64,000 nucleotides of DNA, taken from contig JAUIJZ010000008.1 of NCBI GenBank assembly GCA_030430715.1, forward strand, positions 1,450-65,449, in the 5' to 3' direction. The first letter of the stretch is position 1. Every line of letters begins with the position of its first letter. The notes under the pieces are model-generated. The model had not been told where the DNA came from and searched no databases. It worked only from the letters and a program-made list of their open reading frames with translations. This DNA is from Alphaproteobacteria bacterium. Lineage in GTDB: Bacteria; Pseudomonadota; Alphaproteobacteria; Caulobacterales; Aquidulcibacteraceae. A program made the position numbers and the translations under genes. This document shows, piece after piece, positions 5,467-26,908 of the stretch.

Positions 5467-6207
5467 GTGTCGAAAGTCATCGTCATTACCGGCGCCGGAG
5501 TGGGCCTTGGGCGCGCCTTGGCGCGGCGTTTCGCGGCTGACGGTGACAATGTCGTTTTGCTTGGGCGTACGCTGGCGAAGGTTGAGGCCGCCGCCCAGGA
5601 GATCGGCGAGAAGGCGGTGGCCATTGGATGCGATGTTGGCGCTCCCGAATCCGTGAAGAGTGCGTTCGCGGCGATTGCGAAAACGCACCCGAAGATCGAC
5701 GTGCTCATCAATAATGCTGCGATCTATGAGCCGACGCTCATCGCCGATGCGAGCGACAAACAAATTGTACAAGCGGTGCACACCAACGTCATGGGGCCGA
5801 TCCTGTGTACGCGCGCGGCGCTGGCGATGATGGGGCGCGGCGGACACGTGATCAATGTGGGCAGCGAGGCGGTTGGCATAAGCCCGTTCCCGCACCTGGT
5901 TCTGTATCAGACGACCAAGGCGGCCCTGGATCGGCTTTCAGAGGGACTTTATCACGAGCTTCAGCCTGCCGGCATCCGCGTCACCAATGTGCGCGCCGGC
6001 ATGATGATCGACATGGAAAAGCCGATGGAGGTCGCCGATCCCGAAGCCTGGAAGCGTTTCCATGAATCGTGCGCGGAAGCCGGTCTGAACTTGCGTCAAC
6101 GTCCGATCTCGCAGGTGAAGTCGGTGACAGACGCGTTCCGCGCGGTTATCGACATGCCGTCCGATGTCTTTATGGCCAATGTGCATCTGCACGCCTGGAA
6201 GCCGTAA
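5467..6207 (+). CDS. SDR family oxidoreductase
   Basis: TGAGVGLG, NNA, YQTTK; GTG start after GGAGG. Confidence 0.9.
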   Translation: MSKVIVITGAGVGLGRALARRFAADGDNVVLLGRTLAKVEAAAQEIGEKAVAIGCDVGAPESVKSAFAAIAKTHPKIDVLINNAAIYEPTLIADASDKQIVQAVHTNVMGPILCTRAALAMMGRGGHVINVGSEAVGISPFPHLVLYQTTKAALDRLSEGLYHELQPAGIRVTNVRAGMMIDMEKPMEVADPEAWKRFHESCAEAGLNLRQRPISQVKSVTDAFRAVIDMPSDVFMANVHLHAWKP

Positions 6208-6242
6208 GTAAAACAAAGAACGGGCGAGGAGGGCGCGCACGA

Positions 6243-7895
6243 ATGGATGAGACATTCGATTTCGTTGTGATCGGCAGCGGCGGGGGATCAATGGCGGCGG
6301 CGCTGCTGCTCCGCTCTTTAGGCAAAAGCGTCGTCATCCTGGAGAAGACCGATCTGGTCGGCGGCACCACGGCGCGCTCTGGCGGCGTCATGTGGATTCC
6401 GAACAACCGGTTCCTGAAGCAAGACGGTGTCGAGGATAGCGCCGAAAAAGCCAATGCCTATCTCGATGCGATCAATAGCGACGATCCGAACTTGCCTGGG
6501 GCGACGCCGGCGCGGCGGCGCTCATTTGTTTCTGAGGCGCCGAAGCTGCTCGATTTTCTGATCGCTCAGGGCATCAAGCTTCAGCGTATCAAATACTGGC
6601 CCGATTATTATGACGATGCGCCGGGCGGCCTTGAGGCTGGACGTACGATTTGCGCCGATCTGTTCGATATCAATGAACTCGGCGAATGGAAGGAAAAGCT
6701 GAGGCCCACCGTTATTCCAGTGCCCGCAACCATGGGCGAAGTGATGCGTGTCGGCGGCGGCGGTTTGGACGCCAAGCTGGCCATGGCCGCGATCGGGCTT
6801 CGCATGATCTATATGAAGCTGACCAAGGCGCCGCTCGTCACAGGCGGACAGGCTTTGCAAGGGCGCATGTTGCAGGCTTCGCTGAAGGCGGGCGCCGATA
6901 TTCGCGTCAATACGCCGGTGAAGGAAATTCTGATTGAGAACGGCCGTGCGGTAGGTGTTGTCGTTACTCAGGACGGTAAGGATAAGCGCATTGGCGGCGC
7001 CCTTGGCGTGCTGATTAATGCGGGAGGTTTCTCCAAGAGTCAGAAACTCCGCGATCAATATCTGCCCGGCACGAAGGTGGAATGGTCGCAGGTTCAGCCG
7101 GGCGATACCGGCGAGATGATTGAAGAGGCGTTGCGTATTGGGGGCGCGGTCGCACAGATGGATGCGACAGTCGGGTCCCAAATTGCGCTGCCGCCGGGCG
7201 CGACAGACATGAAGCCGATGCTGCAGAGCGATGCAGCCAAGCCGCATGCGATCGTCGTCGATCAAAGCGGCGAGCGTTTCATGAATGAGGCGGGGTCGTA
7301 TGTGGATTTTTGCGACGGCTTGAAGGCGCGCGATAAGGTCTCGCCCGCTGTGCCGAGTTGGCTGGTGGTCGATAGCCAATACACCGGCAAATATTCGCTG
7401 ATGAACCAAAAGGGCGAGAAGCTCGAAGCGATGGTGGGCTTTGGCGTTTTCAAGAAGGGCGAAACGCTAGAGGCGCTCGCCGCAGCGTGCGGGATGGATG
7501 CTGGAAAACTGAAAGCCTCGGTCGAACGTTTCAACGGCTTTGCGCGGCGCGGCAAGGACGACGATTTCAACAAGGGCGGCAACGTCTATCAGCGCTGGCA
7601 GGGCGATAGAGCGCATCAGCCGTCGCCATCCCTGGGAACGCTGGAGCAGGGGCCGTTCTATGCGGTTCAGGTGTACCCTGGCGATGTGAGCACGTATGGA
7701 GGGCTGGTCACGGATGAGTATGCGCGCGTGCTGAAGGCGGATGGTGCGCCGATCGAAGGGCTCTACGCGACCGGCGTATCGACTGCGTCGGCCATGGGGC
7801 GGCGTGAACCCGCGGCAGGCGGCAGCGTGGGGCCTTCCTTCGTGTGGGGTTACGTAGCGGCCAAACACGCGGCCCATGCTGGAAATCAAGCGTAG
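6243..7895 (+). CDS. FAD-dependent oxidoreductase, 3-ketosteroid-delta1-dehydrogenase-like
   Basis: GSGGG FAD motif, GGTTARSGG, GPFYAVQVYPGD, C-terminal G.GGS.GP. Confidence 0.75.
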   Translation: MDETFDFVVIGSGGGSMAAALLLRSLGKSVVILEKTDLVGGTTARSGGVMWIPNNRFLKQDGVEDSAEKANAYLDAINSDDPNLPGATPARRRSFVSEAPKLLDFLIAQGIKLQRIKYWPDYYDDAPGGLEAGRTICADLFDINELGEWKEKLRPTVIPVPATMGEVMRVGGGGLDAKLAMAAIGLRMIYMKLTKAPLVTGGQALQGRMLQASLKAGADIRVNTPVKEILIENGRAVGVVVTQDGKDKRIGGALGVLINAGGFSKSQKLRDQYLPGTKVEWSQVQPGDTGEMIEEALRIGGAVAQMDATVGSQIALPPGATDMKPMLQSDAAKPHAIVVDQSGERFMNEAGSYVDFCDGLKARDKVSPAVPSWLVVDSQYTGKYSLMNQKGEKLEAMVGFGVFKKGETLEALAAACGMDAGKLKASVERFNGFARRGKDDDFNKGGNVYQRWQGDRAHQPSPSLGTLEQGPFYAVQVYPGDVSTYGGLVTDEYARVLKADGAPIEGLYATGVSTASAMGRREPAAGGSVGPSFVWGYVAAKHAAHAGNQA

Positions 7896-12752: not shown

Positions 12753-13661
12753 TCAGATTTTGGAGATCACATCAGCGCCAATGCGTTCAGCGTTTTCGCA
12801 CCATTCTTTGACGTTATTGCCGCTAACGTGGAGCGCGGCGGAAAGGATGCCGCGATCTTTGAAGCGGCCGATCTTGTCGATCAGGGATGCCGGCGTCCAT
12901 TGCTCGCCGGGCGAGGTGAGGCTGCTGAGGTGAACCTCCGGCATTTTTAGCCCAGTTTTTTCGGCGTGCGCGCGCATGTAGGCGATGCCTTCGTCGATAT
13001 CGAGTTCGCTATTCATAGCTTGCGTGCGCGCTGTCGCGGAAAGCTGTGCGGGGCCGGTGAAGAACGGATACCAGGCGTCGCCGAGTTCAACGGCGCGACG
13101 GATTGCGCGCTTGGAATTGCCGCCGATCAGAATAGGCGGATGCGGACGCTGTAAGGGGCGCGGCATGACGCGATTGCCGAGAGCCTGATAGCCCGTGCCT
13201 TCAAAAGTGAATTCATCTTGCGTCCACGCCGCTTTCAGCGCGCGGATATATTCATCCATGATTTCGTTGCGTTGATCGAAATTGGCGCCGAGCGCCTTGT
13301 ATTCGCCTTTTAAGTAACCTGCGCCGACACCAAGCGAAACGCGGCCTTTGGAGAAGATGTCGAGTGTGGCGACGGAGCGCGCAACGATGAAGGGATTGCG
13401 GTAGGGCAGCACGAGGATGCCGGTTTGCAGGCGCAGGGTTTTGGTCGCAGCCGCGATGAAGGACAGCATGACGAATGGATCTTGCGCGTTGTGCCCACCG
13501 GCATCGAGCCAACGGCCCGTCGGCGCCGGGTGATCGGTGACGCATGCGCCCGCAAAGCCAGCGCGTTCCGCCGCTTGGGAAATCGCGGTCACTGCTTCCG
13601 GCGTCTGGAAATCGTCCGGCGTGCCGGAACGATCGAAGGGCATGGTGACGTTAATTCTCAT
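12753..13661 (-). CDS. LLM-class oxidoreductase, probably F420-dependent (Rv2161c-like)
   Basis: TDHP, DPFVML, LPYRNP, GVGAG...E, IGGNS motifs. Confidence 0.85.
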   Translation of the reverse strand: MRINVTMPFDRSGTPDDFQTPEAVTAISQAAERAGFAGACVTDHPAPTGRWLDAGGHNAQDPFVMLSFIAAATKTLRLQTGILVLPYRNPFIVARSVATLDIFSKGRVSLGVGAGYLKGEYKALGANFDQRNEIMDEYIRALKAAWTQDEFTFEGTGYQALGNRVMPRPLQRPHPPILIGGNSKRAIRRAVELGDAWYPFFTGPAQLSATARTQAMNSELDIDEGIAYMRAHAEKTGLKMPEVHLSSLTSPGEQWTPASLIDKIGRFKDRGILSAALHVSGNNVKEWCENAERIGADVISKI

Positions 13662-13671
13662 CGGATCACCT

Positions 13672-14532
13672 TCAGGCTTTCAGGGTTTCCTCGACGAGCA
13701 CCCACTTACCGGTTTGATTGCGCACCCAGCCGCTCGACGCCCATGTGCCGCCATCGACGGGAAGAGTAGCGCCATTCACATAAGCACTCATGTTCGACGC
13801 GAGAAACACGGCTGCGTCGCCGCATTCGCTATCGATGCCGGCGCGTCCTGCCGGAATGCGGCGCGCGGTGGCGTCGTCTTGGGCGGCGTTCGGCTTGAAC
13901 CATTTGGACTCATCGACGGGCCCGCCAATATTGCCGCGCGTGCCCGGCGTGATTGTGTAGTCCGGCGCTATGGCGTTGACGCGAATACGGTGCTCCGCCA
14001 GCTCGAGCGCCATCGTGCGCGTAAAATTCAGCATGCCGGCCTTACAGGCCGCGTAGGCCGCATAGCCGGGCGCTGCGCGCGAGCCCTCAATACTGGCCAC
14101 ATTGATGATGGCGCCGCCGCGCTTGCCTTTGATGATTTCTGGAACCGCAGCGTGCGTGGCGGCGAACATGCTGACTAGATTGAGGTCTATCAGTTTACGC
14201 CAGCTTTTTTCGGATTGGTCCAAAAAGGGGCGCTGATTAGTGCCGCCAGCATTGTTGACGAGAATATCGAGCCGGCCGAATTCCTTCGCGGCTCGCTCGA
14301 CCGTTGCTCGGATTTTGTCCGTATCGGCAACGTCTGTCGGCGCGGAAAGGGCGCGGCGTCCTAAGGCGCGCACGCGTGCGGCGGTCTCCTCGCAACGCTC
14401 CGGAACAATGTCGGCTATGACGATATCAGCACCGACGGACGCGAAGGCCAGCGCAATGGCGCGCCCGATGCCGCCGCCGCCACCGGTGATAATGGCGACC
14501 TGTTCGGTCAAAGACATATCGGGCGGGGGCAT
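13672..14532 (-). CDS. SDR family oxidoreductase
   Basis: TGGGGGIG, NNAG, YAACK; AGAGG upstream of the start. Confidence 0.92.
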   Translation of the reverse strand: MPPPDMSLTEQVAIITGGGGGIGRAIALAFASVGADIVIADIVPERCEETAARVRALGRRALSAPTDVADTDKIRATVERAAKEFGRLDILVNNAGGTNQRPFLDQSEKSWRKLIDLNLVSMFAATHAAVPEIIKGKRGGAIINVASIEGSRAAPGYAAYAACKAGMLNFTRTMALELAEHRIRVNAIAPDYTITPGTRGNIGGPVDESKWFKPNAAQDDATARRIPAGRAGIDSECGDAAVFLASNMSAYVNGATLPVDGGTWASSGWVRNQTGKWVLVEETLKA

Positions 14533-14644: not shown

Positions 14645-15232
14645 CTATGCGCGCAATGCCTCCGGCACATCCGCCAGATCGTTCGGCTCGTCTATGTCTA
14701 GCGCCAAGGTTGGCGAACAGATCGCGGCTATATTGAGTGCGAGGCGTTCAATCTCGGCGCTATGCAAAGCGAAGCTGTTCGCCCCGAATTGAAATTTGAA
14801 ATCGGCTGCGGCTGGGAGAGGCAGCGATAGGGCGTTTGTGCCGGAGCGTTTACGATCGGGTGCGATGGCGCAAACATCGGCTCCAAGCATCGCGAGTGCG
14901 TCTACATCATGGGATGTGAGCTTTGGCAGATCGGCTGCAATGATGATGACGCGGTCGACGCCCGCTTTAGCAGCGACGTGGAGCGCTTGCGTAAGCTCGT
15001 CATTGAGGCCTGCGCCTCGGTCCGCGAGCCGCGGAGTTGAGTGTGGCAAGGCATGGCGCGATGGCCCAAGCACATAGACTTTGTCGACGTGCAATGCTGC
15101 GCTTGTCGTCTCCACCACATGGCGCAGCATGTTCGCAACAAGGCGCAGGCGGGCCGTTTCACTGAGCGCCGGCTGAAGCCTTGTTTTGCAATTTTGGGGC
15201 GCCTTGATTGGCGTAATGGCCCAGCAGGTCAC
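14645..15232 (-). CDS. cofC: 2-phospho-L-lactate/phosphoenolpyruvate guanylyltransferase
   Basis: PIK...KTRL, GLN, ADLP, PDR..GTNAL, FG..SF..H, DID...DL motifs; GTG start; neighbours cofE/cofD. Confidence 0.92.
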   Translation of the reverse strand: MTCWAITPIKAPQNCKTRLQPALSETARLRLVANMLRHVVETTSAALHVDKVYVLGPSRHALPHSTPRLADRGAGLNDELTQALHVAAKAGVDRVIIIAADLPKLTSHDVDALAMLGADVCAIAPDRKRSGTNALSLPLPAAADFKFQFGANSFALHSAEIERLALNIAAICSPTLALDIDEPNDLADVPEALRA

Positions 15233-15525
15233 GACGGCATGGACTTAAGGCCGAGCACAAAGTCCTTGTTCGCTGGCGCAATATTGTTAGCGGCGAACGC
15301 GGCCTCGCTATGTTTGGCGTGCGGATGCGCAAGGTGACTGGGGTGTTCCGCGCGGCCGGCAATGGCGAGTACAGCCATGATTATCTCCCAAGACGCTTCA
15401 AGCATGCGCGCGCGCTAGCCGCAATCGGGCTCGACTGGACAGGTTCGGCTTGTGGCGCCACTGTTTGCCACGGCTGCAGCGGCGGCTGTAATAGGCAATC
15501 CGCTGAGGCGAAAGGGTGCTTTCAG

Positions 15526-16335
15526 ATGCAGCCAGAAGACGCGCCCGCTTCCGGGCCAAGCGTCGTCACCGGCATGAGTGTGACGGTTCTACGTGGGTTG
15601 CCAATGTTTCAAGAGGGCATGAGCGTAGCGCGCGAAATCGCCAAGGCCGCACTGCATGTAGGGTTTAATGTCAACGACGGCGATGTGGTGGTGGTCGCTC
15701 AAAAAATAGTCTCGAAGGTTGAAGGGCGAAAAGTGCGTCTGAGTGATGTGGAGGCTGGCGCGGAGGCAGAGACGCTTGCGCAGCGCACTGGCCGGCCTGC
15801 CGCTCTGATGCAATTGATGCGTGATGAAAGCGCTGAGATTATGCGCGCTACGCCACAAGTGACGATCACGCGTCAACGCACCGGTCATGTTGCAGCAAAT
15901 GCGGGCATAGATGCGTCCAATATAGAAGGCGGCGAAGATGACGCCGTTTTGCTTTGGCCGCGCGATGCGGACGCTAGCGCGCGGGCCATCCGTGCTGAGC
16001 TAAGCGCAGCGTCAGGTGCGGCGCCTGCTGTGTTGATCGCCGACAGTTTGGGCCGCGCATGGCGCATGGGCACAATTGGCACGGCGATTGGCTGCGCTGG
16101 ATTGCAAGTACTGCACGATCGCTGCGGCGAGGCTGACCTCTTTGGCAGGGCGTTGCGCGCCACGTTGGTCGGTGTTGCGGACTCGATTGCGGCGGTGGCG
16201 GTCTTGGCCATGGGCGAGGGGGCGGAGGGCACGCCGGTTGCGATTGTGCGCGGGGTGCAGCGTTATGTGACGCGCGAGGATGGAAACGGCGCGGTTATGG
16301 CTCTGCGTCCGCTGGATCAGGATCTATTCCGGTGA
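15526..16335 (+). CDS. cofE: Coenzyme F420-0:L-glutamate ligase (stand-alone, no nitroreductase domain)
   Basis: VAQKIVSKVEGR, ANAGIDASN, DSLGRAWR, GEGAEGTP, ending RPLDQDLFR. Confidence 0.92.
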   Translation: MQPEDAPASGPSVVTGMSVTVLRGLPMFQEGMSVAREIAKAALHVGFNVNDGDVVVVAQKIVSKVEGRKVRLSDVEAGAEAETLAQRTGRPAALMQLMRDESAEIMRATPQVTITRQRTGHVAANAGIDASNIEGGEDDAVLLWPRDADASARAIRAELSAASGAAPAVLIADSLGRAWRMGTIGTAIGCAGLQVLHDRCGEADLFGRALRATLVGVADSIAAVAVLAMGEGAEGTPVAIVRGVQRYVTREDGNGAVMALRPLDQDLFR

Positions 16336-17294
16336 TGGAAGGGCATGTGCTGGCGCTCTGCGGCGGCGTGGGCGGCGCCAAGTTCGCGGCGGGGCTGGCG
16401 GCAGTGCTGCCCCCGGAGCAGCTAACCATCGTCGTCAATACGGGCGATGATTTCGAACATATCGGGCTCAGCATTTCGCCAGACATTGACACCGTCTTGT
16501 ACGCCTTGTCCGGGCTTTCCGATGCTGTGCGCGGCTGGGGAGTCGCTGATGAGAGTTGGCGCTGCATGGAGATGCTTGAGCGCTTGGGTGAGCCGCAATG
16601 GTTCATGCTTGGCGATCGCGATCTCGCCATGCATTTGGCGCGCACCCATCGCTTGCGCGCCGGAGAGACTTTGTCGGGGGTCACATCAGATCTCGCGCTT
16701 CGCCTAGGTATTGCAGCGGCGATCGCACCCATGAGCGACGACCGTGTGCGCACCGAGGTTGACACCGAGCAGTGTGCGTTGCCGTTTCAACGCTATTTCG
16801 TCGCTGAGCAGTGTAAGCCCGTGGCGCGCGCCATTCGCTACGTGGGTGCAGAGGTGGCGCGACCATCACCGGCTTTTTCCGCTGCCTTGACGCGGCGTGA
16901 CCTCGCCGCCGTGATGATCTGTCCGTCCAATCCCTATCTCAGCATAGACCCGATCTTGGCGGTTCCTGGCGTGCGTGCGCAGTTGGAGCGTGTGCGTGCG
17001 CCGCGGGTGGCGGTCTCGCCGATTATCGCCGGCAAGGCGCTCAAAGGGCCTGCGGCCAAGCTCATGGGGGAGCTTGGGGTGGAGCCGGATGTAGTTTCTG
17101 TTGCGCGCCATTATCGTGAGCTGATCGACGTGCTGATCATTGATGAGTCCGACGCTGCGCGTGCTGGCGATGTCGAGGCCGTTGGCGTAAAGGCGGTGAC
17201 AGCGCCCGCCATCATGCGTACGGCGGCTGATCGTGCTGCGCTCGCACGCGAAGCATTGGCGGCGGCGCGCCAGTCGAAGGGAGTGGCCGTTTGA
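16335..17294 (+). CDS. cofD: 2-phospho-L-lactate transferase
   Basis: GGVGGAKF, NTGDDF, SPDIDT, LGDRDLA, PSNPYLSIDPIL, KGPA; overlaps cofE stop. Confidence 0.95.
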   Translation: MEGHVLALCGGVGGAKFAAGLAAVLPPEQLTIVVNTGDDFEHIGLSISPDIDTVLYALSGLSDAVRGWGVADESWRCMEMLERLGEPQWFMLGDRDLAMHLARTHRLRAGETLSGVTSDLALRLGIAAAIAPMSDDRVRTEVDTEQCALPFQRYFVAEQCKPVARAIRYVGAEVARPSPAFSAALTRRDLAAVMICPSNPYLSIDPILAVPGVRAQLERVRAPRVAVSPIIAGKALKGPAAKLMGELGVEPDVVSVARHYRELIDVLIIDESDAARAGDVEAVGVKAVTAPAIMRTAADRAALAREALAAARQSKGVAV

Positions 17295-19630
17295 AACTGG
17301 AGGCGGATACAAGTCTACGGCGTTGGCTGCTTGAGGCGCCGACCGAGACCTTGCTCACGGAAGCGCGCGCGCGTCGTGATGGGCGTGGTCCAATGCGGAC
17401 GACCTATTCGCGAAAAGTGTTTATCCCGCTGACGCAGCTTTGCGCCGATGTTTGCCATTATTGCACCTTTGCGAAGGCGCCGCGCAAATTGGCCGCCACG
17501 TATCTGACGCCCGACCAAGCGCTGGACATTGCGCGGCGTGGCGCGGCGATGGGATGCAAGGAAGCGTTGTTTACGCTCGGCGATGCGCCTGAGCGCCGTT
17601 ATGCGGTCGCGCGGGATGCACTGACCGAAATGGGCTTTGAGCGCACGATCGATTATGTCGCGCATGTCGCGGGGCTGGTGCTCAAGGAAACGGGACTTCT
17701 ACCGCACATCAATGCCGGCGTTCTGAGTGAGGACGATTATCGCCAGCTGCGCGGTGTTTCGGCATCGGCGGGGCTCATGCTGGAAAGCGCGTCGGACAGG
17801 CTGTGCGAACGCGGTGGACCGCATTTCGGTTCGCCGGACAAGCGCCCCGCTGTGCGAATGGAGTCGCTCGCGGCGGCGGGCGTGGTGCGCATGCCGGTCA
17901 CAAGCGGTGTACTGATTGGTATCGGTGAGACTGAAGAAGAGCGGTTGGATGCGCTGATTGCGCTGCGCGATCTGCATCGCCGTTACGGCCATCTACAAGA
18001 AGTGATCGTGCAGAACTTCCTGCCTAAGGCTGGCACGCGCATGGAGCATGCGTCGCCGCCGCCGGAAGACGCTTTTTTGCGGGCGGTCGCCTGGGCGCGC
18101 ATCGTTCTCGATGACGATGTAGCCGTGCAAGCGCCGCCAAACTTGAATATGGCGCGGCTCGCACGGTTGCTTGATGCTGGCATCGACGATTGGGGCGGCG
18201 TTTCGCCTGTGACCGCCGATCATGTCAATCCTGAAGCGCCCTGGCCGGAAGTTGAACGGCTCGCCGCAGTTTGCGCACGTGCGGGCCGGCCATTGACCGA
18301 GCGCCTTACTATCTATCCGAGGTTTGCTCTCGCCTCTGAAATTTGGCTCGACGCGGCCGTGCGCCCTGCTGTGTTGGCGCTAAGTGATGGCGAGGGGCTT
18401 GGGCGGGAAGGCGATTGGAGCCCCGGCGTGGCCGCGCCAGCGTTGGGTTCGTCACAAAAACCGTTGCCGCACGCGCCGGGTATAATGGGCGACGCTGCTA
18501 TTGAGCGTAATCTTGCGCGCGCGCAGAACGGGATGGAGCTTTCGGAAGCCGATATCGTGCGGTTGTTCGAGAGCCGCGGTGCGGCGGCGGAAGCGATTGT
18601 GCGCGCGGCGGATGCATTGCGCGCCGAGGTGAAGGGCGACGCGGTGACGTATGTTGTCAACCGCAACATCAACTATACCAATATATGTAGCTATAAGTGT
18701 TCCTTCTGTGCGTTCTCCAAAACGTCGGCGAAAGCCGGTCATCGCGATACGCCTTACGTGCTCGACTATGAGGAGGTCGCTGCGCGCACGCTTGAGGCGC
18801 GGGCGCGTGGCTCGACGGAGGTGTGCCTGCAGGGCGGTATTCATCCAAGTTATACGGGGGAGACCTATCTCGGCATTCTTGAGTCGGTGAAGCGTGCCTG
18901 TCCGGACATGCATGTACACGCCTTCTCGCCGCTTGAGGTGAGCTCTGGCGCCGCCACGTTGAAGATGCCGGTACGCGATTTCCTGAAACGCTTGAAGGAG
19001 GCGGGGCTCGGCTCGTTGCCGGGCACGGCGGCGGAAATTCTCGATGACGAGGTGCGGGCGCTTATCTGCCCCGATAAATTATCTACCCAAGAATGGCTCA
19101 GCGTCGTGAAGACTGCGCATGAGGTTGGCTTGGCGACGACGGCGACAATCATGTTCGGCCACGTAGAGACTTACACACATTGGGCGCGGCATTTGCTCGC
19201 TATTCGCCGCCTGCAATTGCAAACGGGTGGGTTCACGGAGTTCGTACCGCTACCGTTCGTACATATGGAAGCCCCGATGTTTCATCGCGGAAAGGCGCGG
19301 CGAGGGCCAACATGGCGCGAGACGGTGCTGATGCATGCGGTGAGCCGTTTGGTACTACATGGTGCGATCGATTCTATTCAGTGTTCTTGGGTCAAGCTTG
19401 GCGTGGACGGGGCCGCAGCCTGTCTTGCGGCAGGCGTGAACGATCTTGGCGGCGTGCTCATGAATGAGAGCATCAGCCGCGCGGCGGGCGCTGCGCATGG
19501 GCAAGAAGTCAATGTTGAAGACCTCGCTGCGGCAGCGCGTGCGGCTGGCCGTACGCTGCGCCAGCGTACTACGCTCTATGGCCTGATCGATGAAGGCGGG
19601 TCGCAGGCTCTGGCTCAGGCGCCCGCCTGA
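17291..19630 (+). CDS. fbiC: Bifunctional FO synthase (fused CofG-CofH)
   Basis: Two radical-SAM motifs (CADVCHYC, CSYKCSFC), DDWGGVSPVT.D.VNPE.PWP, SLPGTAAEIL; TTG start overlaps cofD stop. Confidence 0.95.
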   Translation: MKLEADTSLRRWLLEAPTETLLTEARARRDGRGPMRTTYSRKVFIPLTQLCADVCHYCTFAKAPRKLAATYLTPDQALDIARRGAAMGCKEALFTLGDAPERRYAVARDALTEMGFERTIDYVAHVAGLVLKETGLLPHINAGVLSEDDYRQLRGVSASAGLMLESASDRLCERGGPHFGSPDKRPAVRMESLAAAGVVRMPVTSGVLIGIGETEEERLDALIALRDLHRRYGHLQEVIVQNFLPKAGTRMEHASPPPEDAFLRAVAWARIVLDDDVAVQAPPNLNMARLARLLDAGIDDWGGVSPVTADHVNPEAPWPEVERLAAVCARAGRPLTERLTIYPRFALASEIWLDAAVRPAVLALSDGEGLGREGDWSPGVAAPALGSSQKPLPHAPGIMGDAAIERNLARAQNGMELSEADIVRLFESRGAAAEAIVRAADALRAEVKGDAVTYVVNRNINYTNICSYKCSFCAFSKTSAKAGHRDTPYVLDYEEVAARTLEARARGSTEVCLQGGIHPSYTGETYLGILESVKRACPDMHVHAFSPLEVSSGAATLKMPVRDFLKRLKEAGLGSLPGTAAEILDDEVRALICPDKLSTQEWLSVVKTAHEVGLATTATIMFGHVETYTHWARHLLAIRRLQLQTGGFTEFVPLPFVHMEAPMFHRGKARRGPTWRETVLMHAVSRLVLHGAIDSIQCSWVKLGVDGAAACLAAGVNDLGGVLMNESISRAAGAAHGQEVNVEDLAAAARAAGRTLRQRTTLYGLIDEGGSQALAQAPA

Positions 19631-19686: not shown

Positions 19687-20805
19687 ATGCGTGTTCAGCC
19701 TGCTGCATTCCTGCGCACGACATTGCCTTTGGATTTCTCGAAACTGAGCGAGTACGACAGCGGGCGATATCACTCGATCTGGTTGCCGGATCATATGGTG
19801 AGTTTCTGGCCGGATTCGATCTGGAGTTCGGAGTTCACGGATCTCGCTTCGGTATCTCCATCGCCACACCGGCATCTCGATGGATTGGCCATAGCCGCCG
19901 CCGTTTCGCAGCAAACGAAAAATGTGCCGATCGCGATGAGTGTGGTCGATACGGTGCGGCGCCATCCTTCGCTCTTGGCTCAGACGGCGCTGACGATCGA
20001 TCATCTCGCCAAGGGGCGTTTCATTCTTGGCCTCGGCAGCGGCGAAACAGAAAACACCGTTCCCTATGGTTTTGACTTCAACAAGCCGGTGGGGCGGTTT
20101 GAAGAAGCGCTTAAAGTGATCCGCTTACTTTGGGATACGCAGGGGCCAATCGATTTCGAAGGCAAGTTTTTCAAGCTGAGCCACGCGCGCCTCGATACCG
20201 AACCCTATCAAGGCAAATTTCCCAGTATTTGGATCGGCGCTAGCGGGCCGCGCATGCTTGGCATTACTGGCCGCTATGCCGATGGCTGGTGGCCGGCGGG
20301 CGCGTGGACGCCGGAGGATTTTGCCGCCAAGCTGAAAGTGGTGCGCGAGTCAGCTGAGCGCGCTGGGCGCGACCCCATGGCGATCACGCCTGCTTACATC
20401 ATGATGTGCCTAATTGGTGATGAGACGGAGGTGGCGGAGATGCTCGAGGCGCCGCTGATCAAAGCGGGCATCCTCATGCACCTTGAGGCAAAGCTATTGA
20501 ATGAACGCGGCTTCGATCATCCGCTTGGTAATGATTGGCGTGGCTACCAAGATATAGATCCTGGTGCGCTGACCCGCGAACGCATCTTGGACATGCTTGG
20601 CAAAGTCGATGTGAGGGCGATCACTTCGATCGTGCCGACCGGCGCGCCGAAAGAGATTGCGAGGATCGTGAAGGGCTATGTGGATGCCGGCCTGCGGGTG
20701 CCGAAAATTCTCGATTACGGTGGAATGGCGGGCATGAAGTATGGCGCGCGTTCGGCAGAGAAAGTGCGCCAGACCGAAGACGAACTGCTGAAATTGTGCG
20801 CTTGA
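19687..20805 (+). CDS. LLM-class oxidoreductase, Rv2951c (phthiodiolone ketoreductase)-like, probably F420-dependent
   Basis: WLPDH, RRHP, GLGSGETENTVPYG, KPVGRFEEAL, GPRML..TGRYADGW, GRDPMAITPA. Confidence 0.8.
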   Translation: MRVQPAAFLRTTLPLDFSKLSEYDSGRYHSIWLPDHMVSFWPDSIWSSEFTDLASVSPSPHRHLDGLAIAAAVSQQTKNVPIAMSVVDTVRRHPSLLAQTALTIDHLAKGRFILGLGSGETENTVPYGFDFNKPVGRFEEALKVIRLLWDTQGPIDFEGKFFKLSHARLDTEPYQGKFPSIWIGASGPRMLGITGRYADGWWPAGAWTPEDFAAKLKVVRESAERAGRDPMAITPAYIMMCLIGDETEVAEMLEAPLIKAGILMHLEAKLLNERGFDHPLGNDWRGYQDIDPGALTRERILDMLGKVDVRAITSIVPTGAPKEIARIVKGYVDAGLRVPKILDYGGMAGMKYGARSAEKVRQTEDELLKLCA

Positions 20806-20809
20806 GCCT

Positions 20810-21973
20810 ATGAGTAGATCTATTCTCGACGCGGACGCGTTGCTCGCGGCGGCTGAGGCCGAAACTGGGCTAAGCGATTATGGCGACCCGACGTTCAAGG
20901 AGCGCTTCGCTATCGCGGCTCAGCAGATTTCGGCATGTGGCATGGATGAGTTCGGGCAGCGCAAGGGCGCAGAGGTTTGCCGTTGGCTTCTGACGTCGCG
21001 CCTCAACTTCTTTGAAGATCATAAGCGCTATCACCTCGACGACGAAAAGATCGAAAAGCCGCTTTTCGCGACCGGAGAGCCTCGTTCGGGAACGACGCTG
21101 CTGCATGCGTTGCTGTCCGTGGATCCGAACGCGCGTTCGCTGCGCTTTTGGGAGGTGATGTACCCTTCGCCACCGTCTGGCATGGCCGCAGATGATGATC
21201 CGCGACGCGCGCAAGCAGACAATGATTGGCGCGAGATCAATGCGAAAATACCCCTTTGGCTGCATAGCCATCCGTACAATGACATGCTCGGCAATGGCTT
21301 GCCCGAAGACGAGCGCACTTGGGCGATGGATTTTCGTGTAATGACGCCGACCGCGTGGTGGCGCGTGCCGATGGGCATGAATTTCGCGGGGCTACCTTCT
21401 GACCCGCGCGCGCAGTATCGGTTGCATAAGATGATGCTGCAGCATTGCCAGCATACGCGTCCGAAGAAGTATTGGGTGCTGAAGGGGTTTCATAACGCGC
21501 GCCTCAAAGCGCTGTTCGAAACCTATCCGGATGCGGCAATCATATGGACGCACCGCGATCCCATACAAACTATTGCCTCGCGCATCGCCATGGCGGCGGA
21601 GATCACGGACGGTCTCGTTGGGCATGTGGACTGGAGGGCGATCGCTAAAGGTCAGCTCGCTTATGCTCGCAACAGCATAAAAACGACGATGGAAAGCCCT
21701 TGCGTGAACGATGCGCGCATCCACCATGTGCGCTATCCGGACTTCATCGCCGATCCGGTGAGAACAATACGCGATTTTTACGAGACGTATGGCGTGCCAT
21801 TCAATAACGAGATGGCGCGCAAGATGCAGGATTATCTCGCCAATAATAGAGGCGATCGCTACGGCAAGTTCGTCTATTCGGCCGATATGATCGGCGAGGA
21901 TCTGGACAAGCTGAACGACGAGTTCGCGCCATTCCGTGAACGGTTCGGGTTGGAGATTGAGAAGCGCAAATAG
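20810..21973 (+). CDS. Sulfotransferase (PAPS-dependent, mycobacterial-type)
   Basis: GEPRSGTTLLH 5'-PSB loop, WVLK, HRDP 3'-PB motif. Confidence 0.9.
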   Translation: MSRSILDADALLAAAEAETGLSDYGDPTFKERFAIAAQQISACGMDEFGQRKGAEVCRWLLTSRLNFFEDHKRYHLDDEKIEKPLFATGEPRSGTTLLHALLSVDPNARSLRFWEVMYPSPPSGMAADDDPRRAQADNDWREINAKIPLWLHSHPYNDMLGNGLPEDERTWAMDFRVMTPTAWWRVPMGMNFAGLPSDPRAQYRLHKMMLQHCQHTRPKKYWVLKGFHNARLKALFETYPDAAIIWTHRDPIQTIASRIAMAAEITDGLVGHVDWRAIAKGQLAYARNSIKTTMESPCVNDARIHHVRYPDFIADPVRTIRDFYETYGVPFNNEMARKMQDYLANNRGDRYGKFVYSADMIGEDLDKLNDEFAPFRERFGLEIEKRK

Positions 21974-21982
21974 GGGGCGCTG

Positions 21983-22792
21983 ATGCACGAGCGGATTTCG
22001 ATCAATAGCATCAGCTTTTTGGGTTCGCCGCTCACGGCGTTCGCTGAGATTTGCCGCGACTTGCAGCCCAAGCGCGTGAGTTTTCTGAATAGCGAGCTTG
22101 ACGATGCGGGCAGCGTGCGGCGGTTGCTCGACGAAGGCCGGTATCGGTTTGAGACATGTACGCATGTCTTCATGCCGGGTCAGCACCTCGATCCGAATGA
22201 GGAAACCTGGGCCGAACCGCGCGCGCGACTTAACAGCTTGATTGATCGTGTCGCAGCGCTCGGCGGAAACTCCATCTACATGCTGACGGGTGGCCACGGT
22301 AGTCTAACCTGGGAGCAAGCGGCGGAAACCTTCGCGGCGATAATTGCGCCCTGCGCGTTGCGCGCGAGGGAGGCCGGGGTTCAGCTGCTCATTGAGAATG
22401 CGTCGGTTCTGTTCGCCGACAACCATATCGCCCACAATCTGCGCGATCTCGCAACGCTGGCGGAGATGGCAGATATTGGCGTCAATGTTGATATCTACGG
22501 CATTTGGATGGAGGCGGATCTCAAGGCGTCTCTGGAGCGTCTCATGCCGCGTTGCCATCTCATTCAGGCCAGCGATTATGTTTATGGAGACCGCTCGTTG
22601 CCGTGCCGCGCGGTGATCGGCGATGGCGCCGTGCCCTGGCCGCGCATTTTGGACTGGGTGTTGTCGGCCGGCTATGCGGGGGCGTTCGATCTTGAGCTTA
22701 TGGGGCCCCGAATTGAACGAGAGGGGCGCGTGGCGGCGAACCGGAGAAGCGCGGAGCGGTTAAGCGAAATGTTGCACAAGCTAGGCGCTTAA
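21983..22792 (+). CDS. Sugar-phosphate isomerase/epimerase-like TIM-barrel protein
   Basis: LLIEN, NVDIY, SD....DR....GDG..PW, DLEL pattern of the xylose-isomerase-like fold. Confidence 0.8.
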   Translation: MHERISINSISFLGSPLTAFAEICRDLQPKRVSFLNSELDDAGSVRRLLDEGRYRFETCTHVFMPGQHLDPNEETWAEPRARLNSLIDRVAALGGNSIYMLTGGHGSLTWEQAAETFAAIIAPCALRAREAGVQLLIENASVLFADNHIAHNLRDLATLAEMADIGVNVDIYGIWMEADLKASLERLMPRCHLIQASDYVYGDRSLPCRAVIGDGAVPWPRILDWVLSAGYAGAFDLELMGPRIEREGRVAANRRSAERLSEMLHKLGA

Positions 22793-22810: not shown

Positions 22811-24040
22811 ATGGCTTTTGGAGCAGCTGCGGAGGATGCGGCGCTGCGCGCGGCCTGGAACGATTTCTGCGACAAGCTGCGCGCTGCTGGCGAGCAGGCG
22901 TTCAAAGACGCCAATCCGGCGAACCCGCTGCAGCGTGCTGATGCGTTCCGCTTTCTGACGCAAAATCTGGGGCAGGCCTTCGATTTGGGGCTTGAAACCA
23001 AGGATACGCGTTATCCTCTGTTGCACGCCTTTTGCTCGCCAACACGCAAGCTTGGCGGAGACGCTGGAGACTTCAGCTATCAGCAAGCCTGGATCGACGG
23101 CGCATCGCGTTACAGGCTCTTCGGCGATCGCGGCACGGCGCGCTTTCTCAATGTGACTGTGCAGGGGCCGCGGCCTGAGAAAATACCGAATACGGACTGG
23201 CCAAGCTTGCATGAGCCGTTCGGCGATATTCCAGAAGCAAATCTGTTCGCGCATCAACTGAAGACGGAGACGGACGGACGCTTCGAAATTTTTATAGGCG
23301 GGCCGGAGCGGGGGGCGAATTGGCTGCCGACAACACCAGGGTCGCGTAAGCTATTCATTCGCCAGGGTTTCGACGCCTGGAAGGAAACGCCGGCGCGGAT
23401 GCAGATTGAGCGGCTGGATATGGAGGCGCCGAAACCGGCGCCGACTCCGGGCGACATGATCGGCGCGATGGATTGGGCGGGGACCTTCGTCACCGGCCTT
23501 ATGCGCGATTGGCCCGAGCATCCGCACGCTTATAGCGGCGGCGTCGTCGATCCGGGGCGACCCAACATCTTTCCGCAAATAGAGGCGACGGGAGCTGACC
23601 AAAAGCGAGGCCGCGCCATCGCGCATATGTGCTGGACGCTCCGGCCAGATGAAGCGTTGATCATTGAGTTCAATGAACATGATGCGTTTTGGATGCTTAC
23701 CAATTCGGGCGCGTTCTTCAACAGCATGGATTATCTGTATCGCCAGGTCAGCTACACGCCGGCGCGCACAAAGACAGATAGCGACGGGATGGTGCGGCTC
23801 ATCCTCGCTCACGAAGATCCCGGCTGTCACAATTGGCTGGACACGCAGGGTTTTGCGCAGGGCAATATCACCTACCGCGAATTGCTGAGCCCGGGAAAAG
23901 CGACGCTGTCGACGAGACTTGTGAAGCGGACGGAGCTTGACGAGGCTTTGCCGGCCGATACGGCTAAAGTCACGCCGGAAGAGCGCCGCGCGCAAATGCT
24001 GGCTCGGTTCTATGGAGTTTTGCGGCGCTACCCGCTCTAG
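22811..24040 (+). CDS. DUF1214-like conserved hypothetical protein
   Basis: KLGGDAGDFSYQQA.IDG...YR..G.RG, L.PDEALIIE, DPG..NWLDT.G pattern of proteins often found beside sulfotransferases. Confidence 0.7.
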   Translation: MAFGAAAEDAALRAAWNDFCDKLRAAGEQAFKDANPANPLQRADAFRFLTQNLGQAFDLGLETKDTRYPLLHAFCSPTRKLGGDAGDFSYQQAWIDGASRYRLFGDRGTARFLNVTVQGPRPEKIPNTDWPSLHEPFGDIPEANLFAHQLKTETDGRFEIFIGGPERGANWLPTTPGSRKLFIRQGFDAWKETPARMQIERLDMEAPKPAPTPGDMIGAMDWAGTFVTGLMRDWPEHPHAYSGGVVDPGRPNIFPQIEATGADQKRGRAIAHMCWTLRPDEALIIEFNEHDAFWMLTNSGAFFNSMDYLYRQVSYTPARTKTDSDGMVRLILAHEDPGCHNWLDTQGFAQGNITYRELLSPGKATLSTRLVKRTELDEALPADTAKVTPEERRAQMLARFYGVLRRYPL

Positions 24041-24723
24041 TCACCGCGTTTCAAATCATCGGTTTGATTTTCAGCCCAGTCTTTGACTTCTGCAGGCCGA
24101 AAGCGCGCGCTTGGCGAGTTTCCTGAAGCGGTACGCAAATCGTAGCCGATAGGATCAACGCCGTCTTCAAGCTGAATTCCAAAGGCGGTGACGGCCCAAC
24201 TCAGCATCACATAATGGCCGATAGTGAAAACGAGATCCATGATCTGCTGGCGATCGAAATGTGCGGATAGCGCGTTCCAGGTACTATCGGAAAGGCGCGA
24301 GGCATCGATGAACTCATCGACAGCATTAAGCACGGCGCGGTCAGCCTCGTTCCAGATCGCAGCGTTTGCGCCATCTTTTATGGCGGCGATCTCTTCCAAG
24401 CTCATGCCTAAATTGACGCAATAGCCGACATGGTAGTGCCATTCGTAGTCGCATTTCAGTCGCCATGAGATGCGGATGACGACAAGTTCTTTGACGCGCC
24501 CCGATAGCGTTGAGTCGATGAGCAGGTGCTTGCCGAATATATTGTAGGCAGTCGCTAGCTTCGGGTGCTGTGCGAGGGTCATGACAATGTTGGTCTTTGA
24601 TCCATCGCGCCATGAATCCGGCTCGCCCCAAAACGCGAAAACTTCGCGAGCGGGATTGTCCCAATCTTCGGGCGGCAGCGTCGGGATGCGAGGCGTGTCT
24701 TTTCTCATGTCTTTCGTCGCCAT
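24037..24723 (-). CDS. Carboxymuconolactone decarboxylase/AhpD-like protein (paralog 1)
   Basis: LAQHP.L, KELVVIRISW...YEWHYH, MDLVFTIG.Y. Confidence 0.85.
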   Translation of the reverse strand: MATKDMRKDTPRIPTLPPEDWDNPAREVFAFWGEPDSWRDGSKTNIVMTLAQHPKLATAYNIFGKHLLIDSTLSGRVKELVVIRISWRLKCDYEWHYHVGYCVNLGMSLEEIAAIKDGANAAIWNEADRAVLNAVDEFIDASRLSDSTWNALSAHFDRQQIMDLVFTIGHYVMLSWAVTAFGIQLEDGVDPIGYDLRTASGNSPSARFRPAEVKDWAENQTDDLKRGD

Positions 24724-24793
24724 TCATTAGGCTGGTGCTTGCATCGATGCGGCAAGGTCGTAGATGATGGCCGTTGAAACAAGGGAGAATTTC

Positions 24794-25477
24794 ATGGCCT
24801 CGGACAAAGAAGGCGAAGAGCGGAAGGTTAAGCGTAAGAAGCCCCGGATTCCGCCGCTGCCGCGGGAAGAGTTCACCGACGACGCGCGTGAGGTGTTTGC
24901 GTTCTGGGGCGAGCCCAATGCTTGGGAGGAGGGCTCGAAGACGAATGTCATCAACACCATGGGCAACCATCCGGCGCTTGGAAAGGTGTACAACGTCTGG
25001 GGCATGCATTTCCTGATGCATAATTCGATGCACATTAGGCAGCTTGAGCTCGTTGTGTTGCGCGTCGCGTGGCGGGTGAAGTCGGAATACGAGTGGCACA
25101 ACCATGTCGGCTACGCCATGAACGCGGGCATCACGCTTGAGGAGATTGAAGCGATCAAACTCAAGCCGGCGGATGGGCCGTGGGATGAATTGGACAAAGC
25201 GGTTCTCGTCTCCGTTGACGAGCTGATTGGCAAGGGACGCATCAGCGACAAAACCTGGAAGATCCTGACCAAGCATTATGACAAGCGTCAGATGATGGAT
25301 TTGCTGTTCACCATCGGTCACTACGTGATGACGAGTTGGGCTTTGTCATCGATGGGTGTCGAGATGGAATCGCCGGACCCGATTGGCTTCGATCTCAGAA
25401 CGGCTTCCGGGCGTATTCCTGGAAAGACTTATAAGCCGGGCGAAGTCGAAGATTGGATCAAGACTCGCGGCTACTAA
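24794..25477 (+). CDS. Carboxymuconolactone decarboxylase/AhpD-like protein (paralog 2)
   Basis: MGNHP.L, ELVVLRVAW...YEWHNH, MDLLFTIGHY; GGAG before ATG 24794. Confidence 0.85.
   Translation: MASDKEGEERKVKRKKPRIPPLPREEFTDDAREVFAFWGEPNAWEEGSKTNVINTMGNHPALGKVYNVWGMHFLMHNSMHIRQLELVVLRVAWRVKSEYEWHNHVGYAMNAGITLEEIEAIKLKPADGPWDELDKAVLVSVDELIGKGRISDKTWKILTKHYDKRQMMDLLFTIGHYVMTSWALSSMGVEMESPDPIGFDLRTASGRIPGKTYKPGEVEDWIKTRGY

Positions 25478-26832: not shown

Positions 26833-26908
<76 letters not shown>

Follow-up and report, generated by a model that had tools for sequence, protein, structure and literature searches.

A predicted F420-dependent LLM oxidoreductase, a distant paralog of Rv2951c, heads a conserved four-gene sulfotransferase cassette

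Introduction

The mycobacterial phthiodiolone ketoreductase (fPKR) Rv2951c belongs to the luciferase-like (LLM) class of oxidoreductases, within which a 2021 classification puts fPKR beside the Mers in ‘Type A’, a clade that used to be called the reductase clade (Mascotti 2021, PMC8518648). In FGD1, another F420-dependent LLM hydride transferase (LLHT), F420 is contacted by Asp39, the Ser73–Val74 cis-peptide site, Gly106, Gly108, Glu109 and Asn112 (PMC13434993). As of a 2021 review of the cofactor, no F420-dependent oxidoreductase from a non-actinobacterial bacterium had been studied experimentally, and the same review counts ‘why Proteobacteria synthesize this cofactor’ among the open questions (PMC8498797).

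Here an LLM gene is described in a 64 000-nucleotide stretch of DNA, referred to below as the window. The host is a non-actinobacterial organism, a Caulobacterales alphaproteobacterium, the named homologs of the window being those of Hyphomonadaceae, Caulobacteraceae, Viadribacter and Terricaulis. Also encoded in the window is FlgH, the flagellar L-ring protein, with a score that exceeds the curated cutoff. An earlier note, made from the sequence, had presented the gene as a homolog, outside Actinobacteria, of the F420H2-dependent Rv2951c, with a long-chain or steroidal ketone as a plausible substrate. The gene and the three that follow it are:

19687–20805, plus strand: LLM-class oxidoreductase, 372 aa, predicted to be F420-dependent (PF00296, 172 bits); gene 1 of the cassette
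20810–21973, plus strand: PAPS-type sulfotransferase, 387 aa (PF13469, 96.7 bits); separated by 4 bp from the LLM stop
21983–22792, plus strand: xylose-isomerase-like TIM barrel, 269 aa (PF01261, 68.8 bits; AF2 model, pLDDT 92.4)
22811–24040, plus strand: DUF1214-like protein, 409 aa (PF06742, 35.7 bits; PDB 6ans, ‘uncharacterized protein’, 160 bits)

Cofactor class of the LLM enzyme

The LLM open reading frame runs exactly from an ATG at 19687 to 20805 on the plus strand, with a purine-rich stretch (GAGAGGGAG) ~10–18 nt 5′ of the start, and its product is modelled as a TIM barrel of the LLM type (AF2 pLDDT 89.7, pTM 0.89). Among NCBIfam profiles, the F420 LLM families score 118–94 bits versus 59–45 bits for the FMN families (SfnG 59, SsuD 51 and RutA 45, against cutoffs of 383–518). 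The top subfamily, TIGR03619, gives 118 bits against a cutoff of 166.9, and the remaining F420 subfamilies score lower, all below cutoff; true fPKR likewise reaches no F420 LLM subfamily cutoff of NCBIfam/TIGRFAM. Since every such cutoff is missed, the enzyme is assigned to no named subfamily, and the missed cutoffs exclude the named F420 subfamilies and not the LLHT superfamily.

Structural comparisons point in the same direction. A sequence search of the PDB ranks Mer, fHMAD, Adf and FGD at 86–65 bits (Mer 86) versus RutA and SsuD at 54–44, and a Foldseek search with the AF2 model returns F420 enzymes in all of its top 20 matches (rmsd ~4 Å), with Mer first and FMN enzymes at 6–9 Å. The nearest solved relatives are thus Mer (8qpl, 1z69), Adf (1rhc), FGD1 (3b4y/3c8n) and FGD2/fHMAD (9fp4), at 86–65 bits, TM ~0.7–0.8 and rmsd ~4 Å. 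Contacts with the F420 ring and ribityl chain are shared with them, as is the non-prolyl cis-peptide site (Ser/Cys-Val), whereas the window enzyme is only ~20% identical and ~40 residues longer, owing to an insertion after beta-2 and an extended C-terminus. D35, H36, S85–V86, G117, G119, E120 and N123 align with FGD1 D39, H40, S73–V74, G106, G108, E109 and N112, and the predicted F420-contact residues are invariant across 31 sequences of the clade defined below, except that S85 is Cys in three. The catalytic His40 and Glu109 of FGD1 correspond to the invariant H36 and E120; in place of its Trp44 there is an invariant His (H61), and its sugar-phosphate residues Lys198, Lys259 and Arg283 are not kept. 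F420 dependence is therefore a well-supported prediction. The assignment made in the earlier note holds in that the profiles, the PDB search and the predicted structure all group the enzyme with the F420-dependent LLM proteins, with no best match in FMN-dependent clades; among TIGRFAM subfamilies, the F420 families rank first, although none is reached at its cutoff.

Relationship with Rv2951c and the fPKR label

A sequence of Rv2951c, used solely as a search probe, retrieved a database protein of 381 aa (P0285) that is 100% identical to it, along with orthologs whose sources are named as M. leprae, M. lepromatosis, M. marinum and M. pseudokansasii. UniRef names the M. leprae ortholog phthiodiolone/phenolphthiodiolone dimycocerosates ketoreductase. 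The M. pseudokansasii ortholog (P0291) lies in a canonical PGL/PDIM locus, with genes for a methyltransferase, a Sacchrp_dh reductase, the LLM enzyme, a fadD29-type ligase, an Rv2949c-like protein, a fadD22-type ligase and a type I PKS. By BLASTP, the window enzyme shares 38% identity with P0285 over 317 aa (206 bits, E 8e-68) and 34% with the M. leprae ortholog over 345 aa (E 4e-67). Five segments had been quoted in the earlier note as matching Rv2951c in order, namely GLGSGETENTVPYGFDFNKPVGRFEEAL (residues 115–142), EPYQGKFPSIW (172–182), GPRMLGITGRYADGW (187–201), GRDPMAITPA (227–236) and HPLGNDWRGYQDIDP (278–292), and all five do align with P0285 in that order. Judged by alignment, this match far exceeds chance, and of the relatives studied by experiment Rv2951c is the nearest by bit score (206 bits, whereas Mer, the top PDB entry, gives 86).

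The two enzymes have the same fold, a similar length (372 versus 381 aa) and 34–38% identity over nearly the full length. Both carry an insertion after the DH motif, which FGD1 lacks, and the two clades have both kept D, H, V, G, G and E at the positions of F420 contact. They differ at the position of FGD1 Asn112, which is Asn in the cassette clade and Gly in fPKR, and at that of Trp44, which is His in the window enzyme and Trp in P0285 according to a pairwise-anchored alignment. In a quick IQ-TREE phylogeny with SH-aLRT support, the fPKR clade (13 sequences plus P0140) and the cassette clade (32 sequences, stem 1.04) each have 100% support and sit in different subtrees with many lineages intervening. 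Moreover, ~20 environmental Mycobacterium and Mycolicibacterium genomes carry an ortholog of the window gene (70–72% identical), and a separate Rv2951c-type gene (54–72% identical to P0285) is present in 4 of 12 mycobacterial carriers. Separate, fully supported clades and the presence of both genes in one genome imply that the window enzyme is not the counterpart of Rv2951c; the tree and the coexistence of both paralogs rule out orthology. The homology claimed by the earlier note is thus genuine (38%, E 8e-68), and the status of ortholog that it might suggest is not; by these comparisons the enzyme represents a distinct subfamily and a distant paralog, at 38% identity, of Rv2951c.

Genomic context separates them as well. 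The PDIM/PGL setting (Rv2952 methyltransferase, fadD29, fadD22, pks15/1 and pps/mas) is found neither at the window nor at 80 related loci, so that pps, mas, fadD and PKS genes do not surround the window enzyme as they do Rv2951c, and the partner gene encodes a sulfotransferase instead of a methyltransferase. As the note had observed, the window holds no polyketide synthase; none occurs at the 80 related loci either, where genes for the sulfotransferase, the TIM barrel and the DUF1214-like protein are found instead. With no PKS in the window, the substrate must differ from that of Rv2951c.

The novelty of a homolog ‘outside Actinobacteria’ is weak, in spite of the non-actinobacterial host: 444 genome loci encode relatives of the window enzyme, and proteobacterial homologs already bear the fPKR name from the JGI pipeline (NCBI annotation calls them merely ‘LLM class flavin-dependent oxidoreductase’). 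The same label is found on distant LLM clusters, which also contain sequences from Asgard and Chloroflexota, and the source name ‘phthiodiolone ketoreductase’ was accordingly rejected as functional evidence. This corrects an annotation problem, since the pipeline-spread label covers diverse LLM enzymes of ~370–385 aa unrelated to PDIM.

A conserved four-gene cassette

In the window, the four genes follow one another in the order given above, on one strand, with intergenic gaps of 4, 9 and 18 bp. Conservation was counted over the 66 loci whose sequence extends far enough downstream: the sulfotransferase gene lies directly 3′ of the LLM gene in 64, the TIM barrel and the DUF1214-like gene are each present in 55, and all three partners occur in 52. 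No fifth universal gene was found across related loci, where a generic SDR appears at variable positions, nor was a conserved flavin reductase partner present in cassette loci. Acyl-CoA dehydrogenase genes lie 5′ of the cassette in 21 loci, most of them from mycobacteria. An adjacent sulfotransferase gene is lacking in the two LLM lineages examined that come next in closeness.

The sulfotransferase retains the PAPS motifs (PSB loop PRSGTT at 91, RDP at 249), and a PDB sequence search with it returns only 2z6v and 2zq5, presumably STF9 and STF1 of mycobacteria, in which some Stf enzymes are known to act on lipids. For the TIM barrel, Foldseek ranks sugar isomerases and ketose 3-epimerases (UlaE, IolI and YcjR) highest. 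Literature searches on the cassette, on DUF1214 and on F420 combined with a sulfotransferase returned nothing relevant. A similar logic is known from cyp128–stf3 (sulfomenaquinone), in which an oxidoreductase makes a hydroxyl that the adjacent sulfotransferase then sulfates. As in that M. tuberculosis pair, genes for a redox enzyme and a PAPS sulfotransferase stand side by side here; however, the redox partner is an F420 LLM enzyme instead of a P450, the TIM barrel and the DUF1214-like gene have no counterpart there, and the distribution of the cassette is mostly proteobacterial.

F420 supply, distribution and transfer

Genes for F420 biosynthesis precede the cassette in the window:

14645–15232, minus strand: cofC, F420-synthesis guanylyltransferase (TIGR03552, 132 bits, cutoff 105); divergent from cofE
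15310–16335, plus strand: cofE, F420-0:gamma-glutamyl ligase (TIGR01916, 240 bits, cutoff 181)
16332–17294, plus strand: cofD, 2-phospho-L-lactate transferase (TIGR01819, 285.9 bits, cutoff 257)
17291–19630, plus strand: fbiC, bifunctional FO synthase CofGH (NF006687, 1091 bits, cutoff 1018); ends 56 bp before the LLM start

No terminator-like site was found between fbiC and the LLM gene, and the cassette is probably co-transcribed with the cofE–cofD–fbiC operon. Elsewhere in the host are genes for an F420-dependent glucose-6-phosphate dehydrogenase (FGD; TIGR03554, 474 bits, cutoff 420) and an APS kinase (255 bits, cutoff 139). Fno was considered as a source of F420H2 and discarded, being absent from the host, in which FGD was found instead.

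Adjacency to fbiC is not a conserved trait: it is absent in three relatives, and F420 genes occur within 8 kb of the LLM gene only in the window and in 2 of 80 other loci. In L076 and L083, F420 genes also flank the cassette, in arrangements differing from that of the window. For this reason, genome-wide co-occurrence was used as evidence. FbiC is encoded in 50/50 proteobacterial carrier genomes tested, a figure inflated by the shared ancestry of the carriers. In a random sample of the order of genome G001, 72 of 201 genomes encode FbiC and five the LLM enzyme, all five being FbiC-positive (hypergeometric p ~0.005, hand-calculated); in the host's own order, FbiC is present in 4 of 201 genomes, and the sole LLM carrier is among those four. 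FbiC was thus found in all 55 carriers tested (50 proteobacterial and 5 from the order sample), and among the genomes tested the cassette LLM gene is confined to F420-capable ones. FbiC itself is widespread in at least one of the carrier orders, at 36%.

Members of the cassette clade are 70–77% identical across Gamma- and Alphaproteobacteria and ~20 environmental mycobacteria, with carriers ranging from marine Proteobacteria to soil mycobacteria and including the culturable Solimonas terrae, Zhongshania aquimaris, Phenylobacterium and Halioxenophilus. The cassette has been widely transferred, and the cofE–cofD–fbiC operon of the host was acquired horizontally. Vertical inheritance in the host's order was rejected, given that the LLM gene is present in 1 of 201 genomes and that the FbiC proteins of the same genus are 56–58% identical and encoded without common flanks. 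A search for an integration site revealed no repeat of the tRNA-Lys end, and the GC content shows a small dip (0.57 versus 0.61).

Proposed pathway and alternatives

On balance, it is probable that the LLM enzyme is an F420-dependent hydride transferase that heads the cassette and reduces a carbonyl, with its neighbour O-sulfating the product. F420H2 would be produced by the host FGD. With it, the LLM enzyme would convert the carbonyl of a small, probably polar substrate into a secondary alcohol, the invariant His36 and Glu120 acting as a putative acid/base pair; the TIM-barrel enzyme would work next to the carbonyl, by epimerisation or isomerisation, and the sulfotransferase would O-sulfate the product with PAPS. 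By analogy, Rv2951c is followed by the O-methyltransferase Rv2952, so that in both systems a group-transfer step would come next on the presumed new hydroxyl. Reduction as the direction of the reaction, and a carbonyl as the group reduced, are suggested because the nearest studied relative is a ketoreductase, because fPKR belongs to the Type A clade and because the TIM barrel resembles enzymes acting alpha to a carbonyl. The order of the steps and the class of substrate are read from the domain families: the universally conserved ketose-epimerase-like barrel indicates polar substrates, and a polar, sugar-like compound fits better than a lipid or steroid. The complete scheme, i.e. a new F420H2-dependent pathway in which ketoreduction, epimerisation and O-sulfation yield a small sulfated metabolite, is more tentative and has a somewhat less than even chance of being correct.

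The LLM enzyme could instead run oxidatively, since alcohol and sugar dehydrogenases that reduce F420 (FGD, Adf) use the same His/Glu pair, here H36/E120, in catalysis. A dehydrogenase of the FGD, Adf or fHMAD type would then convert a hydroxyl into a ketone, which the barrel would epimerise or isomerise, with sulfation at another position. Such a route accords with the match of the invariant H36 and E120 to the substrate/catalytic His40 and Glu109 of FGD1, with the lack of Fno in the host and with the resemblance of the barrel to YcjR-type 3-keto-sugar epimerases, which act after a dehydrogenase in oxidise–epimerise–reduce routes. The F420 LLHTs are, besides, described as catalysing either direction (PMC8498797). 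However, a bona fide FGD is already available in the host for the reduction of F420; fPKR, the nearest studied relative, is a reductase of the Type A (ex-reductase) clade with the Mers, and Mer is the top structural match; finally, FGD1 Trp44 has given way to the invariant H61 and the sugar-phosphate residues are absent. Oxidation is therefore considered unlikely, at about one chance in a handful.

Still less likely is that the enzyme takes the functional role of Rv2951c with a ketone of the long-chain or steroid type as substrate, with the sulfotransferase yielding a sulfated lipid or steroid. Carriers include Hydrocarboniphaga and Steroidobacteraceae, whose names suggest hydrocarbon or steroid degradation, as well as Solimonas, Zhongshania, Sphingobium and Mycobacterium, all of which we take to be degraders of hydrophobic compounds. 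The acyl-CoA dehydrogenase genes 5′ of the 21 mostly mycobacterial loci and the presumed STF9 and STF1 as sole PDB relatives of the sulfotransferase would agree with a hydrophobic substrate, as would a KstD-like gene (6069–7895), an acyl-CoA ligase gene and an enoyl-CoA hydratase gene within 12 kb in the window. It was on such neighbours that the earlier note had based its choice of ketone, a proposal that comparison across loci does not support, for these genes do not travel with the LLM gene, whereas those of the sulfotransferase, the TIM barrel and the DUF1214-like protein do. In addition, the KstD-like protein scores below its cutoff (589 versus 789), the universally conserved partner is the ketose-epimerase-like barrel, and the window enzyme is no ortholog of Rv2951c and has no PKS/PDIM genes around it.

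Finally, an FMN-dependent LLM monooxygenase (SsuD, SfnG or LuxA type) standing beside an F420 operon by coincidence would agree with the general NCBI name of the homologs, the missed F420 subfamily cutoffs and the unconserved fbiC adjacency, but is highly improbable given the far lower rank of FMN families in sequence and structure comparisons, the conserved F420-contact residues, FbiC in all 55 carriers and the lack of a conserved flavin reductase partner.

Significance

Because the cassette is a compact, highly conserved unit, strictly tied to F420 producers among the genomes tested and present in culturable Proteobacteria and non-pathogenic mycobacteria, it makes the question of why Proteobacteria synthesize F420 directly testable. 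If the pathway to a sulfated metabolite by carbonyl reduction is correct, F420 would for the first time have a defined physiological role in Proteobacteria and a connection with sulfation. The 70–77% conservation across phyla would then reflect repeated horizontal transfer, favoured by the selective value of the product, which could be an osmolyte, a signal or an envelope component.

Relationship to Rv2951c

The luciferase-like protein (LLM) of 372 aa lies where the earlier note placed it (19687-20805, forward strand) and matches PF00296 with 172 bits. All five segments quoted there as likenesses to Rv2951c, the mycobacterial F420H2-dependent phthiodiolone ketoreductase (fPKR), are present. 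An Rv2951c sequence, used purely as a search probe, retrieved the database protein P0285 (381 aa, 100% identical) and source-named orthologs of M. leprae (phthiodiolone/phenolphthiodiolone dimycocerosates ketoreductase in UniRef), M. lepromatosis, M. marinum and M. pseudokansasii. The last is located within a canonical PGL/PDIM locus, with the gene order methyltransferase, Sacchrp_dh reductase, LLM, fadD29-type ligase, Rv2949c-like gene, fadD22-type ligase and type I PKS. Because of these orthologs and this locus, P0285 is a genuine yardstick for Rv2951c. The five segments align with it in order and the homology is real, with 38% identity over 317 aa (206 bits, E 8e-68) and, for the M. leprae protein, 34% over 345 aa. 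P0285 itself scores below every curated NCBIfam cutoff, NCBIfam having no fPKR model.

Among the representatives of 50%-identity clusters, searched exhaustively, a single cluster is close (P0121, 67% identity, 588 bits); scores then drop steeply to ~280 bits at 35-41% identity. When one genome was scanned for each species, relatives turned up at 444 loci, and those of the 80 best loci are 70-77% identical to the window LLM. Carriers among these 80 are distributed as follows.

Gammaproteobacteria: Cellvibrionaceae, Litorivivens, Zhongshania, Halieaceae, Spongiibacteraceae, Solimonas, Hydrocarboniphaga, Steroidobacteraceae
Alphaproteobacteria: Phenylobacterium, Rhizomicrobium, Sphingobium, Acidocella
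Mycobacterium/Mycolicibacterium, ~20 species: M. deserti, M. pulveris, M. neumannii, M. sphagni, M. tusciae, M. barrassiae, M. celeriflavum and others

In mycobacteria, there is therefore a far closer relative of the window LLM than Rv2951c. In a maximum likelihood tree (quick IQ-TREE, SH-aLRT support), the relatives of the window LLM form one clade with 100% support and a long stem, and the true fPKR sequences form a second one, also with 100% support, in a separate subtree. Moreover, 4 of 12 cassette-bearing mycobacterial genomes have an additional Rv2951c-type gene, 54-72% identical to P0285, and their cassette LLMs are 36-38% identical to P0285. Separate clades and coexistence rule out orthology; the two proteins are distant paralogs. 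Thus, the earlier description of an Rv2951c homolog outside Actinobacteria stands as to homology and falls as to its ortholog framing. The host is indeed non-actinobacterial, with a flagellar L-ring protein encoded in the window whose named homologs are from Hyphomonadaceae, Caulobacteraceae, Viadribacter and Terricaulis.

The JGI pipeline already names proteobacterial homologs phthiodiolone ketoreductase, as it does distant clusters including Asgard and Chloroflexota sequences, so that this label is neither new nor informative. In full ('phthiodiolone/phenolphthiodiolone dimycocerosates ketoreductase'), it is carried by a wide range of LLMs of about 370-390 aa from many lineages, called 'LLM class flavin-dependent oxidoreductase' by NCBI. 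The former name is too specific; the latter hides the F420 link.

A four-gene cassette

The LLM gene opens a cassette with intergenic gaps of 4, 9 and 18 bp.

19687-20805, +, LLM
20810-21973, +, PAPS-type sulfotransferase
21983-22792, +, TIM barrel
22811-24040, +, DUF1214-like protein

In the three relatives examined first, upstream genes differ and three downstream genes are alike (PF13469 sulfotransferase, PF01261 TIM barrel and ~410-aa DUF1214-like protein). Of the 66 loci whose downstream sequence reaches 4.5 kb or more, 64 have the sulfotransferase directly after the LLM, 55 the TIM barrel and 55 the DUF1214-like gene; all three partners are present in 52, mycobacteria included. Clustering all ORFs of the 80 loci revealed no further universal neighbour, and in the two next-closest LLM lineages examined no sulfotransferase is adjacent.

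In one 5.8-Mb genome (L002:6487-9794, reverse strand), a second TIM-barrel and DUF1214-like pair, oriented divergently, precedes the cassette and is linked with an SDR and a glyoxalase-fold gene, which suggests that the two proteins act as a pair with exchangeable reductases. Immediately 3′ of the window cassette is a head-to-head CMD/AhpD-like gene pair (24037-25477) with the lowest GC of the region (0.54-0.55); a few Halieaceae loci (L042, L063, L081 and L084) likewise have CMD homologs beside the cassette.

Link to F420

The window encodes cofC on the reverse strand and cofE, cofD and fbiC on the forward strand, each above its curated cutoff. The LLM starts 56 bp past fbiC, with no terminator-like site in the gap. 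F420 LLM families of NCBIfam score above FMN families, and PDB sequence matches are led by F420 enzymes (Mer 86 bits, fHMAD 68, Adf 65 and FGD 65) ahead of FMN enzymes (RutA 54 and SsuD 44). The AlphaFold model (pLDDT 89.7, pTM 0.89) retrieves F420 enzymes only among its top 20 Foldseek matches. Hence, best matches in FMN monooxygenase clades, the outcome set against the proposal in the earlier note, were not obtained. In the glucose-6-phosphate dehydrogenase FGD1, F420 is contacted by Asp39, the Ser73-Val74 cis-peptide site, Gly106, Gly108, Glu109 and Asn112, His40 being a substrate residue (PMC13434993). These align with D35, S85-V86, G117, G119, E120, N123 and H36 of the LLM, invariant in 31 clade members except for S85 (Cys in three).

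FbiC is encoded in all 50 proteobacterial carrier genomes tested. In a random sample from the order of one carrier (G001), 72 of 201 genomes encode FbiC and five, all FbiC-positive, encode the LLM; in the host's own order, FbiC occurs in 4/201 and the LLM in the host only. FbiC is thus far more frequent in the former order, which holds Halioxenophilus (36%), than in the host's order (2%). In loci L076 and L083, too, the cassette is flanked by F420 genes, in differing arrangements, and an fbiC-type gene is found 2.5 kb from a more distant member of the family. Just beyond cofC (12753-14532, reverse strand) are a second LLM (TIGR03619, F420_Rv2161c family, 241 bits, cutoff 167) and an SDR; since their homologs (66% and 69% identical) adjoin the cassette and F420 genes in L083, they may constitute another F420-linked module.

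Cofactor and sulfate supply also appear to be provided for. A bona fide FGD (TIGR03554, 474 bits, cutoff 420; contig C86:4590-5582 of the host genome, outside the window), 55% identical to mycobacterial FGD1, means that F420H2 can be made. With FGD present and Fno absent (no TIGR01915 match in the genome), glucose-6-phosphate is the probable reductant of F420, as in mycobacteria. In the sulfotransferase, the PAPS-binding motifs PRSGTT and RDP are retained, and the host encodes APS kinase.

Proposed function

In the simplest scheme, whose direction, step order and substrate are all inferred, the LLM would use F420H2 to reduce a carbonyl, and the hydroxyl so formed would be esterified by the sulfotransferase, in parallel with Rv2951c followed by the O-methyltransferase Rv2952. 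The opposite direction, with the LLM as an F420-reducing dehydrogenase, is unlikely but stays a candidate owing to the His/Glu pair that it has in common with FGD and Adf.

As to the substrate of the putative carbonyl reduction, the TIM-barrel partner (model pLDDT 92.4) resembles sugar isomerases, ketose 3-epimerases, UlaE, IolI and the 3-keto-glucoside 4-epimerase YcjR, enzymes that work next to a carbonyl; this epimerase-like partner favours a polar substrate. This fold usually bears a metal-binding His (HxxD) where the partner has an invariant Gln195 in the strand motif LVQVSD. Other acidic positions (E138, the D in CIDLF and E238) are conserved, and the metal site may be altered.

The long-chain or steroidal ketone proposed earlier was based on window neighbours that do not stay with the cassette. 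Its steroidal part probably stems from a KstD-like FAD oxidoreductase (6069-7895; 3-ketosteroid-delta-1-dehydrogenase model, 589 bits, below the cutoff of 789); no such gene recurs beside the cassette in the clustered neighbours of 80 loci. Other lipid-type neighbours are an acyl-CoA ligase and an enoyl-CoA hydratase. A distant family member from an Asgard (Promethearchaeota) MAG (L106:3279-4529) has an alkyl-sulfatase-type gene (Lactamase_B and Alkyl_sulf_dimr) 1.5 kb away, possibly a further tie to sulfate esters or else a coincidence.

Origin and significance

The cassette was acquired horizontally, as probably was the F420 operon. In the tree, the window LLM groups with a metagenome sequence beside marine gammaproteobacterial sequences and away from Phenylobacterium, and same-genus FbiC proteins are just 56-58% identical, without common flanking genes. 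GC at the cassette region is 0.57 versus 0.61, with no clear boundary. The following tRNA gene is found 2.8 kb downstream of the cassette.

26833-26908, -, tRNA-Lys (CTT)

Direct repeats of its ends (14-mers) were not found elsewhere in the window, which gives no evidence of an integration site.

According to a 2021 review, LLHTs are broadly present among F420 producers, none from non-actinobacterial bacteria had then been studied, and the role of F420 in Proteobacteria was an open question (PMC8498797). A literature search found no paper on the LLM-sulfotransferase-TIM-DUF1214 cassette. The remaining interest lies in a reductase-sulfotransferase cassette, as yet uncharacterised, that is tied to F420 producers.
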